Shown here in pieces: positions 3,643 to 61,702 of a DNA stretch of 64,000 nucleotides. The translations under genes and the position numbers were made by a program. The first letter of the stretch is position 1. Every line of letters starts with the position of its first letter. Origin of the DNA: a virus; the IMG/VR virus record IMGVR_UViG_3300032046_000014, positions 20,304 to 84,303 of that record; one strand, 5' to 3'. The notes beneath the pieces were generated by a model. The model saw only the letters and a list, made by a program, of their open reading frames with translations. It made no database searches and was not told the origin of the DNA.

Positions 3643-4391
3643 CCCTTTTCCCCGGAGCAAAGACTCTTTCTTCAAGCGTCTATCTTAACCCGCATTTCCA
3701 ACAAGAAGCATATCAACCAAAATATTGCACTCTCGAGGACTTCGAAGATTATTATCAAGCAGACGTAACTGCAGATACTGTGCCAACTGTTTCGCAGGCC
3801 CTTAAACTACTACAGATCGGGGAAGCAGAAATCGACTCGCATGAATGGGGAAGATACATTCAGGAAGACGAATACTTAGACGGTCAATATGAAATCCTCA
3901 CCTTCCAATGGCGATACGTCGGCTTCTTCGCCCAAGTCTTTTATCCGCACCACACGAACATTCTACGAGTAATCGACTGCGCTTACAACTCCGGAGGAGT
4001 ACCTTCCAGCGACGCAACCTGGACAAAAGTCACCGAGGGCCCAGCAAACAACAGCAGCTTCGTAGTGCTGAGAAAACCCAAACTGAAAACCCAGGTGGGA
4101 AGTGCACTTCTTTTCTATTCAAACGTACCCTATCCAGGTCCGCTGCGGCTCAGACTCACGTACGAATACGGAATGGACATCGACAAAGCTTTACTGCGTG
4201 AATGGGCCGGCAAAAAAGCAGCCAAAGATGCATTGGAAATGCGTTCCGCAGCAGAACATGTTAACATCAATCTGGATGCGGGGCCATGGGCCGCTCTGTA
4301 CAAGGCATATGGAGACCGACTTAAAGAACTAGCAAATGACTTGTTCCCGAAGAAAGTGCGCAAAATTTGGGTCTATCCAAGCACAATGTAA
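3639..4391 (+). CDS. Putative head-tail adaptor (gp6/gp15-like)
   Basis: YCTLEDF N-terminal motif, EAEID, LTYEYG typical of adaptor proteins. Confidence 0.6.
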   Translation: MTLFPGAKTLSSSVYLNPHFQQEAYQPKYCTLEDFEDYYQADVTADTVPTVSQALKLLQIGEAEIDSHEWGRYIQEDEYLDGQYEILTFQWRYVGFFAQVFYPHHTNILRVIDCAYNSGGVPSSDATWTKVTEGPANNSSFVVLRKPKLKTQVGSALLFYSNVPYPGPLRLRLTYEYGMDIDKALLREWAGKKAAKDALEMRSAAEHVNINLDAGPWAALYKAYGDRLKELANDLFPKKVRKIWVYPSTM

Positions 4392-43188: not shown

Positions 43189-43262
43189 GGCGGTCTGTGC
43201 GGGAGTTGAACCCGCCTCAGTCGAGTGACAGTCGACCATCCGCACCGGCGGACTTACAAACC
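43188..43262 (-). tRNA. tRNA-Asp(GTC), CCA encoded
   Basis: Cloverleaf; GTCGA-CTGTCAC-TCGAC anticodon arm. Confidence 0.9.
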
Positions 43263-43268
43263 TTGATG

Positions 43269-43339
43269 TGCACCCGCCGGGATTTGAACCCGGCCGTCAG
43301 CGTGGAAAGCTGAGATCCTAGCCACTGGACCACGAGTGC
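43269..43339 (-). tRNA. tRNA-Gly(TCC)
   Basis: Cloverleaf; TCAGC-TTTCCAC-GCTGA; GGTTCAAATCC. Confidence 0.9.
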
Positions 43340-43351
43340 GATGATCCTGTT

Positions 43352-43513
43352 TGGTGCAGAGGACCGGATTTGAACCGGCGCGTCCGCCTTGCGGAAAGAG
43401 GTTTCTCACAGGCTGAACAGTCGTTCCTAACCGTCCTTAGCTTCGAGCTTACGACTTGAGCTTCGAGCTGGGTCTTAAGCCTCTCGCTTTCAGCCATGCT
43501 TGGCTACCCCTGC
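43352..43513 (-). tRNA. tRNA-Leu(TAA) with a 71-nt 37/38 intron (43403-43473), CCA encoded
   Basis: Long variable arm TCCGC/GCGGA; central BHB helix CTTA/TGAG. Confidence 0.88.
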
Positions 43514-43541
43514 ATTAACGGATGGTACTGATAGATCGTAC

Positions 43542-43617
43542 TGGTGGAAGCTGTGGGATTCGAACCCACGGCCTACTGCTTGCAAAGCAGCTGCTCATTC
43601 CGCTGAGCTAAGCCCCC
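43542..43617 (-). tRNA. tRNA-Ala(TGC), CCA encoded
   Basis: Cloverleaf with G3:U70. Confidence 0.92.
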
Positions 43618-43629
43618 AACAAAACGGTT

Positions 43630-43764
43630 CAAGGGTCAAAACAACGTGGATGCAACACCGCTTTACTGGGCGGCCTGCGCTTCAGCGGGATCTTTTTGTT
43701 CGTACTGTGGTCTACTCAGGCGGCTATGACCGCCTCCTAAGAAGTTAGGCAACTTAGACCCTTG
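43630..43764 (-). ncRNA. Candidate 135-nt structured RNA heading the tRNA operon
   Basis: CAAGGGTC/GACCCTTG closing stem; hairpins CCTAA/TTAGG, AGGCGG/CCGCCT, CCGC/GCGG. Confidence 0.55.
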
Positions 43765-43848
43765 CACGAAACACATTGTCATCCACGCTGCCATTTAGAG
43801 TGTGCAGACATTTATTTAAATATGATGTTTCACACAAGGATTGATGGA

Positions 43849-48043: not shown

Positions 48044-48108
48044 TTTTTTCTATTCTCCCTAGCAAGGGATTGACAATGACCGTGAAACTCGGTCGAAAAT
48101 AGAAAAGG
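48044..48108 (+). ncRNA. Type III hammerhead ribozyme, U3-A8 variant; predicted cut after C48055
   Basis: Stem III TTTTCTAT/ATAGAAAA, UUC site, stem I TCCCT/AGGGA, core TTGACAA+T, stem II GACCG/CGGTC, GAAA. Confidence 0.8.
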
Positions 48109-48467: not shown

Positions 48468-48868
48468 ATGCAAACCAAGAACTTGCTCGGAACATAGCGC
48501 ACTTACAGGAAGTCTACAATAGCGATTGCGCTTTCTGCAATCGGTACGGTGACTGCCACCCATGTCCCGACCCGGATCTCCTGCAGAAACGAGCCGACGA
48601 ATGGGCAGCAGAATATGTCCTCACCGACATCGTACCATTACTGTTGAAGCAAATCCAAGAGCTCCAGTTTAAAGCTGGCCTCACAGGCAAGACCAAGCTA
48701 GTGCATGTCACAGTGTACATGGATGAAGAAGGCAACATAGTTCTCGGCGGCTACGGATGGCAAGAATTCTACAACTATGAACAGGTTCAGACTCAACGCT
48801 GGCGAGATCTTGAAGCTGAACGGATAAGACGTGCAGTCGAACCCTTGCCAATGCTGGTCGGACCCTAA
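48461..48868 (+). CDS. Hypothetical protein with Cys cluster
   Basis: CAFC....C.PC. Confidence 0.6.
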   Translation: MLNANQELARNIAHLQEVYNSDCAFCNRYGDCHPCPDPDLLQKRADEWAAEYVLTDIVPLLLKQIQELQFKAGLTGKTKLVHVTVYMDEEGNIVLGGYGWQEFYNYEQVQTQRWRDLEAERIRRAVEPLPMLVGP

Positions 48869-48881
48869 CCCTTCCTTTTGT

Positions 48882-48954
48882 GGACCGTAAGTTGAGCAGC
48901 CTCCACGACGGCGCGGTCTGGAACAGGATTATTCACCTGTACTAAGTGCTCAGC
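48882..48954 (+). ncRNA. HDV-like self-cleaving ribozyme 1; predicted cut 5' of G48882
   Basis: P1 GGACCGT/GCGGTCT with G1.U; P2 GTTGAGCA/TGCTCAGC; P3 GCC/GGC; L3 TCCACGAC; P1.1 CC/GG; P4 ACAGG/CCTGT; J4/2 ACTAAG (catalytic C48942). Confidence 0.92.
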
Positions 48955-48987
48955 AGATTACCTGCAGGTGCAGGAGGTGAAACAAAG

Positions 48988-49821
48988 ATGATGAAAAAGC
49001 AAGTTGCGATACTTCTGGTTGCTGCATTGGCAACTGTACTTGTAGCTTCAGCCATAGTCAGCGCATGTGATCCTCCCAGATGTCCACCGGGTCCTCAAGG
49101 ACCAATTGGACCAGCAGGTCCTAAAGGTGACAAAGGAGATGTAGGAGCAACTGGCCCAACAGGACCTCAAGGTGCAACAGGAGCAACAGGACCAGAAGGT
49201 GCAATAGGACCAATGGGTTCTCAAGGACCCAGAGGAATAAGAGGACCGCAAGGTGAAACAGGATCTCAAGGGCTAACAGGACAGGCTGGAATCAACGGAA
49301 CCGATGGAGTTAACGGAACTGACGGAGTCAACGGAACAGATGGAACTGACGGAAAAGACGGTTCCACTTGGTATAATGGAAACGGCACAGCAACTTCAGA
49401 CTTAGGCAAGGATGGAGACTACTACCTACAAACAACAAACGGTGACATCCTCTACAAGATAGAAGGAACTTGGACTTTCCTGATGAACATCAAAGGCTCC
49501 GATGGAAGCAATGGACTCAACGGACTCGATGGACTCAACGGACAAGACGGCATCGATGGGAAAGACGGAATTGATGGTCTCAATGGAACAGATGGAGAGG
49601 ATGGTAAAGATGGACTTGACGGTCTTAACGGACAAGATGGACTCGATGGAGAAGATGGATTCAACGGACAAGACGGCAATGATGGAACAGACGGAATGTC
49701 TGCACAATCTTCAAGCGGATGCGATTGCAAACTATTGATTCTAATGCTCTTCCTGACCATGATAGCAATCTGGATAATCGCAATCAAAATGCTAAGGTGC
49801 AAGTGCAAGCAGCCCAACTAA
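48988..49821 (+). CDS. Collagen-like surface protein (signal peptide, Gly-X-Y repeats, C-terminal TM anchor)
   Basis: GGAGGTGA RBS; two Gly-X-Y blocks; several NGT sequons. Confidence 0.88.
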   Translation: MMKKQVAILLVAALATVLVASAIVSACDPPRCPPGPQGPIGPAGPKGDKGDVGATGPTGPQGATGATGPEGAIGPMGSQGPRGIRGPQGETGSQGLTGQAGINGTDGVNGTDGVNGTDGTDGKDGSTWYNGNGTATSDLGKDGDYYLQTTNGDILYKIEGTWTFLMNIKGSDGSNGLNGLDGLNGQDGIDGKDGIDGLNGTDGEDGKDGLDGLNGQDGLDGEDGFNGQDGNDGTDGMSAQSSSGCDCKLLILMLFLTMIAIWIIAIKMLRCKCKQPN

Positions 49822-49843
49822 AACCAACAGACTCTTTCTTTGT

Positions 49844-49901
49844 GAGTTGCAAGCTGAGACGCCTCCACGTGGCGCAACTTGGAATACGCGAAGAGCTCAG
49901 C
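49844..49901 (+). ncRNA. Minimal (P4-less) HDV-like ribozyme 2; predicted cut 5' of G49844
   Basis: P1 GAGTTGC/GCAACTT with G1.U; P2 GCTGAG/CTCAGC; P3 GCC/GGC; L3 TCCACGT; GG; J4/2 CGAA. Confidence 0.85.
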
Positions 49902-49928
49902 AAAACGATTGGAGTGTGAAAAAAGAAA

Positions 49929-50105
49929 ATGACTGTAGTATTCTTGGTGCAACGACTGGTCCACGGCAGATGGCAAAGCATCGGAGCTGTCTTCTGCAGG
50001 TACGACCGCAAGGCAGCACTACACCGCGCGCATGAAAACCCAATCATGCATGAACTACTGGCTGGCCACTGTGAAGACGTAGAGTTTTTGAGGTGGCTAC
50101 TGTGA
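49929..50105 (+). CDS. 58-aa hypothetical protein
   Basis: GGAGTGTGA RBS; manual translation MTVVFLVQRL... Confidence 0.5.
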   Translation: MTVVFLVQRLVHGRWQSIGAVFCRYDRKAALHRAHENPIMHELLAGHCEDVEFLRWLL

Positions 50106-60730: not shown

Positions 60731-61702
60731 ATGACAAGCAAAGAGAACGTGATGCTCGGCATCGACGGTTCACTCACGGATCTGCACTCTCATCCTGACA
60801 TGTACTGGCAAGCTAAGTGGGACGGGTATCGCGGCAAACTCGTATTCCAAAATGGCCACGTCAGCGTACTCAATAGAAACGGCAGCGATGAATGGACGCC
60901 GCGACTGCCAGACGTCGTTGAAGGATTGCAGCAGTTCGCAACTGCTACAGGTGCAGCAAGATTCACCCTCGACGCAGAACTCGTCGTTTTCCAAGAGGGC
61001 CACAGCAGCCTCAGCGCCATAGCGAGCAGATGCAAAACTCAGAACCTACAGATGATACAGCTGAAACTACGCAGACTCTACCCAGTGGACGTCATGCTCT
61101 TCGACATCATCGAATGGGACGACCAGCGCCTCGAGAGCGACCCGCTCATGAACAGGCACAACCTCCTAACATCACTCTACAGCACATACAGCAAAGCAGT
61201 TGCAGGCCAGCCTAAACATGTTCAGCTTACCCCGAACTATCTTGATGTGGACACGGCGTGGAACGAGTGGGTTGTCAAGCGGCATGAAGAAGGACTCATG
61301 GCCAAAGATCCTATGAGTCCATACGTGTATGAGCGGAGCTCCAGCTGGCTTAAGGTCAAGATACGGGACAGCGGCACCTTTCATGTGGTCGGCTACACGG
61401 CGGGCGATGGGAACCGCAGCGACACGTTCGGCGCTTTGATTCTGGCTGACGATGTAGGTGTATGCAGAGGACGATGCGGCGGAGGCTTCAGCTGGGCAGC
61501 ACAGGACAGCACCGCACGCCAGATCCTCCAAGCGTTACGGCAGGCGCCGGTAATCAACCCGCCATTCTCAGAAGCCGAGGTTGGATTGCCCTACACTGCT
61601 GTCGACACGAAGATGCAGGTGAAGGTAGCTTTCCTGAAAACGTTCAATGGGTCCAGCAAGCTTCGAAGCCCACAACTAATAGACTGGTGGATACCACAAT
61701 GA
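60731..61702 (+). CDS. lig: Minimal ATP-dependent DNA ligase (LigD/LigC-like)
   Basis: KWDGYR, LDAELV, FDII, EGLMAK, WLKVK, FGALIL. Confidence 0.92.
   Translation: MTSKENVMLGIDGSLTDLHSHPDMYWQAKWDGYRGKLVFQNGHVSVLNRNGSDEWTPRLPDVVEGLQQFATATGAARFTLDAELVVFQEGHSSLSAIASRCKTQNLQMIQLKLRRLYPVDVMLFDIIEWDDQRLESDPLMNRHNLLTSLYSTYSKAVAGQPKHVQLTPNYLDVDTAWNEWVVKRHEEGLMAKDPMSPYVYERSSSWLKVKIRDSGTFHVVGYTAGDGNRSDTFGALILADDVGVCRGRCGGGFSWAAQDSTARQILQALRQAPVINPPFSEAEVGLPYTAVDTKMQVKVAFLKTFNGSSKLRSPQLIDWWIPQ

Follow-up and report, generated by a model that had tools for sequence, protein, structure and literature searches.

Genes and features at the locus

The window analysed here, a stretch of 64,000 nucleotides, corresponds to bases 20304 to 84303 of an 84,303-base IMG/VR record. 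All sizeable ORFs between about 47 kb and 64 kb lie on the plus strand, so that one long transcript would fit this part of the genome. It includes a collagen-like ORF (48988 to 49821, plus strand, 277 amino acids from its ATG), which is bracketed by two HDV-like ribozyme candidates, Rz1 upstream and Rz2 downstream. The predicted protein matches collagen-like and tail-fibre PHROGs, and PF01391 is present in its protein matches. All matches found in our protein search were driven by the collagen repeats, and the C-terminal 50 residues gave none.

Rz2 (49844 to 49901, plus strand) is located in a spacer of 107 nt, in sense orientation to the genes on both sides. It starts 22 nt past the stop codon of the collagen-like ORF and ends 27 nt before the ATG of the next ORF (49929 to 50105, plus strand, 58 amino acids), which is preceded by GGAG. 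In the only close relative that we found, referred to as L003/L010 below, the DNA of this small ORF is 95% identical; its product has no relative in either of the protein collections searched. Rz1 sits in a matching slot, with a stop codon 13 nt upstream and the collagen-like ATG 33 nt downstream. For the 135-residue protein encoded upstream of Rz1, a search among 1.8 billion representative sequences returned only the protein itself and its two halves in L003.

Directly 5' of the predicted Rz2 cleavage point there is a pyrimidine-rich leader, CUCUUUCUUUGU (49832 to 49843, plus strand), which resembles the leaders of Rz1 and of the L003 ribozyme. The motif CUUU(U)GU|G is found at the predicted cuts of both Rz1 and Rz2. 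When IMG/VR was scanned with the pattern of the downstream leader, L003/L010 was the only match. According to ARAGORN and Rfam, tRNAs in the window are confined to positions 43191 to 43617, and the sequence upstream of the Rz2 cut is the 3' end of the collagen-like ORF.

DNA of the locus is present in sediment and groundwater metagenomes, and no RNA run was listed as containing the Rz2 locus. A groundwater contig is about 94% identical over 48953 to 50071, and a sediment contig of 438 nt matches 49839 to 49882 only. Other HDV-like ribozymes, and no Rz2 orthologue, were recovered by a pattern scan of metagenomes.

Further upstream, at 48044 to 48108, a putative variant hammerhead ribozyme (UUGACAA in place of CUGAUGA) had been pointed out in a preliminary description of this DNA. 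The sequence shows its three-stem layout and the GAAA; no Rfam match was obtained at E-values up to 5.

Structural elements of Rz2

The R1 covariance model described below, the Rfam alignment and a structure descriptor all point to a putative minimal, P4-less HDV-like (theta-type) ribozyme of 58 nt. Cleavage is predicted between U49843 and G49844. The 5' strand of P1, GAGUUGC (49844 to 49850), forms seven of seven possible pairs with GCAACUU (49874 to 49880), beginning with the wobble pair G49844.U49880. After the AA of J1/2, which separates the 5' strands of P1 and P2, the segment 49853 to 49860 consists of GCUGAG (49853-58) and AC. Its first six nucleotides form six Watson-Crick pairs with 49896 to 49901, within the 3' strand of P2 (G followed by CUCAGC, 49895 to 49901). 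P3 (GCC at 49861-63, GGC at 49871-73) encloses L3 (UCCACGU, 49864-70) and matches the invariant core of the 28 members of alignment A3 (see below). C49865 and C49866 of L3 can pair with G49881 and G49882 as P1.1, the GG following directly after the 3' strand of P1 (49874 to 49882 together, also in the R1 alignment).

In place of P4 there is a linker of 6 nt, AAUACG (49883 to 49888), a length that is the commonest in the family (as in GUAAUG and AUAACG) and among published forms. J4/2 reads CGAAGA (49889 to 49894) and provides the candidate catalytic cytosine C49889, followed by GAA; in the alignments, it falls on the GCUAA of RF02682 and of R1. We take A49891 and A49892 to be equivalent to A77 and A78 of HDV. 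The residues essential for the HDV ribozyme each have a presumed counterpart in Rz2, namely the G1.U wobble, U20, C21/C22, C24 and G25 of L3, C75, and A77/A78.

The features that define an HDV-like ribozyme are thus found in Rz2, namely a 7-bp P1 with G1.U, P3 with L3 and P1.1, the P2 pseudoknot, and a cytosine with two adenines in J4/2. The feature that defines the theta type, a short linker (here 6 nt) replacing the P4 domain, is found as well. Each element named in the preliminary description could be located in the sequence, including the reduction of P4 to a short linker (the AAUACG between P1.1 and C49889) and C49889 as the catalytic candidate, which the alignments to the GCUAA of RF02682 and R1 bear out.

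One detail had escaped the preliminary description, namely an interruption of P2 beside P3, together with a J4/2 of 6 nt. If A49859 is bulged, C49860 and G49895 can form a seventh P2 pair, and J4/2 has 6 nt. Reading J4/2 as CGAAG instead leaves a P2 of 7 nt that carries two mismatches beside P3. In either case the stacking of P2 on P3 would be broken, by the bulge or by the mismatches, while the P2 pseudoknot itself is present with 6 bp. Judged from the sequence, the P2 and J4/2 junction of Rz2 is somewhat unusual.

Rz1, a full-size paralogue

Rz1 (48882 to 48954, plus strand) is a full-size HDV-like ribozyme with a P4 hairpin, matched by RF00094 with 22.3 bits and, in its core, by R1 with 21.8 bits (E-value 7e-4). 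It has an 8-bp P2, a 5-bp P4 hairpin, CUAAG as J4/2, and GGACCGU/GCGGUCU as P1. In the 64-kb window there are exactly two copies of the core GCCTCCACG..GGC, at 48899 (Rz1) and 49861 (Rz2), compared to an average of 0.01 in shuffled sequences. It is this core that the preliminary description had recognized as common to both copies.

The P1 helices are different in sequence. Between Rz2 and Rz1, 9 of the 14 P1 bases are unlike; four of the seven pairs are altered on both sides and one on one side, and pairing is kept in all of them. The covariation of P1 proposed in the preliminary description therefore holds, with four double-changed pairs and intact pairing throughout. Since the P1 pairs have changed relative to Rz1 and are nevertheless still paired, selection appears to act on the Rz2 fold, which is not what one would see in a decaying duplicate. 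By sequence comparison, Rz2 is a paralogue of Rz1 with a covarying P1.

Database models, shuffled genomes and relatives in other viruses

With Rfam, positions 49844 to 49900 align end to end with the HDV-F-prausnitzii family (RF02682). The score of 21.5 bits falls short of the gathering score of 44, and Rz2 does not reach the gathering score of an HDV family. At the gathering threshold, the whole 64-kb window yields four tRNAs and nothing else; we saw no model of the P4-less form in Rfam. A loose descriptor that specifies only the structure of a minimal HDV-like ribozyme had 3 matches in the 84-kb genome, versus a mean of 0.53 in 60 dinucleotide shuffles. With UCC required at the start of the loop, Rz2 was the only match in the 84-kb genome, and the 60 dinucleotide shuffles had none. 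When folded by minimum free energy as a nested structure, the 58 nt are no more stable than shuffled sequences (z-score 0.19), a value that is uninformative here because the method cannot model pseudoknots.

We scanned IMG/VR with a collecting pattern composed of the Rz2 core, GG and C[G/U]AA, and obtained 77 matching stretches. In 65 of them the upstream heptamer forms at least 6 of 7 pairs with the 3' strand of P1, and in 53 a perfect P1 is combined with a P2 of 5 bp or more; overall, about 55 minimal ribozymes had both helices paired. ARAGORN places a tRNA 3' end 0-3 nt from G1 in 23 of these 53 family members, which identifies the IMG/VR set as the published theta family (see below); in fact, the supplementary lists of PMC10879173 include the same sequences. 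Protein-coding neighbors are also frequent. An ORF ends within 80 nt upstream in 19 of 46 family members, and an ORF starts within 80 nt downstream in 20 of 46.

Alignment A3 was made from 28 of these minimal ribozymes, all of other viral contigs and many of them adjoining a tRNA 3' end, with Rz2 left out. Covariation in P1 and P2 is strong, with 13 double-changed pairs and 95.5% of cells paired, versus 64% in shuffled and 32-47% in slid alignments. As P1 pairing was a criterion for the selection of A3, the variety of its pairs counts as evidence and their completeness does not. The covariance model R1 was built from A3, independently of the window, with P1 and P3 as structure. It scores positions 49844 to 49900 with 41.8 bits (E-value 3e-9, model positions 1-56 of 56), the top match in the window and in the 84-kb genome. 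The runner-up in the genome is the core of Rz1, and the best unrelated match has 10.8 bits. The 41.8 bits are circular as far as the invariant core is concerned, since the training set was collected with the core pattern of Rz2 itself; G1, P1 pairing, the spacings, the linker length, and the GC-AA of J4/2 contribute to the score independently of the collecting pattern. The likeness to minimal theta ribozymes that the preliminary description had seen is thus recovered by a model trained without Rz2.

Rz2 departs from the family in some respects. At linker positions 2 and 3 it has AU, versus UA in 28 of 28 and about 27 of 28 A3 members, respectively; many other linkers exist in the wider published theta set. 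A J4/2 starting with CGAA is also present in family members L140 and L146, and GCGAAU is found in the full-size relatives L059, L068 and L080. Some tRNA-adjoining family members, for example L106 and L117, likewise have small internal loops between P2 and P3. We read the departures of Rz2 at the P2/P3 junction, in J4/2 and in the linker as probably tolerable. It is mainly because of these departures in P2, J4/2 and linker that our confidence in Rz2 activity is good rather than high.

A pattern scan of prokaryotic genomes gave about nine true minimal ribozymes among the matches listed, all on contigs of bacterial metagenome-assembled genomes (MAGs). None of the archaeal-genome matches among those listed had a paired P1. 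One contig of an Erysipelotrichaceae MAG (L189, 6552 bases) carries three theta-type ribozymes in 2.5 kb that differ from one another in P1 and P2. The GCC-UCCACG-GGC core was also seen in full-size HDV-like ribozymes, which have a P4 hairpin, on other viral and metagenome contigs (IMGVR_UViG_3300043395_003072, or L021, as well as L051, L073, L081, L084, L090, L059, L068 and L080). One group of these has GCGAAU as J4/2.

Comparison with known ribozymes

Theta ribozymes have been described as minimal HDV-like ribozymes of Caudoviricetes (Kienbeck et al. 2024, Nat Commun 15:1559, PMC10879173). Rz2 resembles them in the absence of P4, in the 7-bp P1 starting from G, in the GG of P1.1, in the 6-nt linker, and in the J4/2 cytosine followed by NAA. 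Its P3 and L3 (GCC, U, CC, ACGU, GGC) have the commonest published theta form, and one published theta ribozyme (supplementary file 6, entry 16) has the same P1, GAGTTGC/GCAACTT. The virus carrying Rz2 is, like theirs, a tailed dsDNA virus. Four theta ribozymes were found to cleave in vitro, and loss of P4 is normal in active ones (PMC10879173).

Rz2 differs from the theta layout in two points, as a contiguous P2 of about 6-7 bp against P3 and a J4/2 of 4-5 nt are found there and not in Rz2. Comparison by eye with the delimited sequences of supplementary file 6 suggests that Rz2 would probably be missed by the published RNArobo descriptor. Nor does it belong to the tRNA-associated theta subgroup, in which the cut is at most 5 nt from a tRNA 3' end. 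That Rz2 follows a protein gene and not a tRNA was stated correctly in the preliminary description; the novelty implied there goes too far, as 526 of 1281 published theta occurrences (about 41%) do not adjoin a tRNA. These lie in non-coding DNA, 96% of them in sense orientation to the nearest ORF (PMC10879173). Both the class of Rz2 and its placement away from tRNAs are thus already published. A role has been proposed only for theta copies that trim phage tRNAs, and that of the non-tRNA copies was left open (PMC10879173). The published set is about 99% from Caudoviricetes, with predicted Bacteroidota or Bacillota hosts, and more than 80% comes from the gut (PMC10879173). The Rz2 virus, in contrast, comes from sediment or groundwater, probably has an archaeal host, and carries Rz2 paired with a full-size HDV-like ribozyme across the same gene. 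What is new in the case of Rz2 is the likely archaeal host, together with a close relative from which precisely one ribozyme-to-ribozyme unit is missing.

Other known ribozymes are similar in part. drz-Mtgn-1 and other minimal HDV-like ribozymes from metagenomes likewise have the HDV double pseudoknot with a short linker for P4. The type was described without genomic context, as far as the citing paper conveys (Riccitelli et al. 2014, as cited in PMC10879173), and the likeness to Rz2 is one of description only. RF02682, the Faecalibacterium prausnitzii ribozyme upstream of glmM and best Rfam match of Rz2, has the same order of P1, P3, L3 and J4/2. Both precede a protein-coding gene, and P4 is present only in the RF02682 ribozyme. 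The 5' HDV-like ribozymes of R2, L1Tc and RTE retrotransposons free a downstream coding RNA and stay on it as a 5' leader, as we propose for Rz2 (PMC6765202). They are, however, eukaryotic, full size and tied to reverse transcriptases (PMC6765202), none of which was seen in the Rz2 virus. Hammerhead and twister ribozymes located between the genes of bacterial and phage operons are likewise proposed to cut polycistronic RNA into pieces that differ in stability or translation efficiency (PMC6765202). These belong to other ribozyme classes, and the role is proposed rather than proven there (PMC6765202). A full-text literature search found no paper linking HDV-like ribozymes with archaeal viruses, and blastn of the 58-nt Rz2 against annotated phages found nothing relevant.

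A relative without the ribozyme-to-ribozyme unit

The close relative, IMGVR_UViG_3300035179_000773 (L003/L010), has 86-95% DNA identity to the window on both sides of a gap. L003 lacks window positions 48942 to 49890, which is one ribozyme-to-ribozyme unit, and both breakpoints are inside ribozymes. Its single ribozyme combines the body of Rz1 (P1, 5' strand of P2, P3, P4) with J4/2 and the 3' strand of P2 from Rz2, and a G-to-A change turns a U.G pair of P2 into U-A. L003 thus retains a well-formed HDV-like ribozyme in the corresponding position, ahead of the ORF that follows Rz2 in the window. The comparison suggests that a crossover within the ribozymes added or removed the collagen-like gene; as only two genomes were compared, the event may have gone in either direction. 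As a variant, we considered a circular cassette integrating into a resident ribozyme. We rejected it, since the P2 of the hypothetical cassette ribozyme would be no better than that of Rz2, and nothing is gained over a deletion in the L003 lineage.

Three further differences or similarities between the two viruses were observed. The segment 49891 to 50027, which includes the start of the 58-residue ORF, has 95% DNA identity to L003 versus 86-90% in the flanks, which may reflect a conserved RNA or a recent exchange. L003 has an insert of about 150 nt at its positions 4186-4337 (relative to window position 48645) that splits the gene for the 135-residue protein into ORFs of 121 and 72 amino acids, with which it introduces a stop codon as well as a new start (GAGAGGUG-ATG); it matched no RNA family. 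Finally, L010 is without the array of four tRNAs. Its alignment with the window extends to 43189 and resumes at 43814, with about 12 bases between, so that the stretch 43190 to 43813 with the tRNA array appears to be a second cassette-like presence/absence difference.

Host of the virus

Among 50,697 phage records, the major capsid protein matched only haloarchaeal tailed viruses (31% identity, E-value 9e-40) and a Methanofastidiosa virus. The closest match of an AAA ATPase is a protein of Acidianus tailed spindle virus. For the large terminase, the best matches (24-25% identity) are from Streptomyces and Bacillus phages.

The four tRNAs identified by Rfam form an array at 43191-43617 on the minus strand. 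One of them (43355-43513, minus strand), probably Leu-UAA, was found by Rfam and overlooked by ARAGORN. It has the anticodon loop CUUAAGA, a long variable arm, and an insert of 74 nt in the anticodon loop. UGAG, the 3' end of the insert, could form a helix with CUUA, flanked by 3-nt bulges (AGA and AAA), an arrangement that resembles the bulge-helix-bulge splice motif of archaea. With 74 nt, the insert is too short for a group I intron. We propose an archaeal host because the capsid protein and the intron-bearing tRNA point there; judged from these genes, it is probable that this tailed virus infects archaea.

Proposed function and alternative explanations

We consider it likely that positions 49844 to 49901, between the collagen-like gene and the next ORF, are a genuine minimal, P4-less, theta-type HDV-like self-cleaving ribozyme. 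From its fold, its family membership, its intergenic sense position and its relationship to Rz1, we infer that Rz2 is co-transcribed with its neighbors, that it cleaves itself in vivo, and that this has an effect on expression. As the polycistronic RNA emerges, Rz2 would fold co-transcriptionally into a nested double pseudoknot, and with C49889 as the general acid the chain would be cut between U49843 and G49844. The collagen-like message would then carry a 2',3'-cyclic phosphate at its 3' end, 22 nt past the stop codon, and the message downstream would start with a 5'-OH and the compact Rz2 fold, 10 nt before the Shine-Dalgarno-like GGAG. If Rz1 cuts as well, the two cuts together would release the collagen-like cistron as a monocistronic RNA of 962 nt, whose stability and translation would be uncoupled from those of its neighbors.

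Rz2 could also be a decaying or inactive copy that arose by duplication of, or recombination with, a ribozyme of the Rz1 type, and that, if maintained at all, would persist as a recombination scar or act as a structured 5' leader. The loss of P4, the interruption of P2 beside P3 and the longer J4/2 would fit such a history, as would a linker that is off the family consensus at two near-invariant positions and the fact that L003 manages with one ribozyme at the locus. However, active theta ribozymes normally lack P4 as well (PMC10879173), and internal loops between P2 and P3 are also seen in the tRNA-adjoining L106 and L117. Moreover, the positions of the catalytic core are all intact in Rz2, and a fully paired P1 in which 9 of 14 bases are unlike Rz1 is not expected from simple decay. 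We regard an inactive copy as unlikely. Outright chance resemblance in a spacer, or sequence that is merely part of a small overlapping ORF (49719-49919 or 49847-50035), would agree with a nested fold no better than shuffles and with the short ORFs that cover the stretch. The pseudoknot is beyond the reach of the minimum-free-energy method, though, and chance would have to account for a pattern with 0 matches in shuffled genomes, an R1 E-value of 3e-9, and a core identical to that of dozens of tRNA-adjoining ribozymes. The overlapping ORFs would encode 62-66 amino acids, have no known relatives, and are out of frame over the collagen-like gene. It is extremely improbable that Rz2 is to be explained in this way.

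The indel in L003 invites explanations at the level of DNA. Rz1 and Rz2 might mainly mark the borders of a swappable cassette, with recombination in the cores inserting or deleting the collagen-like gene, and cleavage being secondary. L003, 86-95% identical on both sides and without 48942-49890, has its breakpoints inside the ribozymes and a hybrid of Rz1 and Rz2 as its single ribozyme, in line with this idea. Two genomes nevertheless represent a single event in either direction, and ordinary homologous recombination between any two repeats would look alike. A border function also leaves the covarying P1 and the intact catalytic core unexplained, and we think it quite improbable that it is the main one. 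In addition to cleavage, the two ribozymes might form a gene-sized module, with the cores as crossover points in the DNA and the 962-nt RNA circularized or re-ligated via RtcB, the archaeal tRNA-splicing ligase that joins 5'-OH and 2',3'-cyclic phosphate ends. Support for this suggestion, which we regard as improbable, comes solely from the one indel whose two ends fall within ribozymes.

Taking Rz2 as a genuine self-cleaving ribozyme, the locus is a clean example of a full-size and a minimal ribozyme bracketing one gene, and it adds a natural presence/absence polymorphism, with both breakpoints falling within ribozymes. Provided that the cuts are real, it would offer a simple system for studying how ribozyme processing sets the ends and the stability of messages. 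An archaeal host would make the case more interesting, as the cut ends (2',3'-cyclic phosphate and 5'-OH) would be substrates of RtcB.

Elsewhere in the window, an ORF of 323 amino acids (60731-61702) has an ATP-dependent ligase adenylation domain (PF01068, E-value 1.5e-24). It may act on DNA or on RNA, a distinction of interest because ribozyme-cut ends need a ligase for rejoining.
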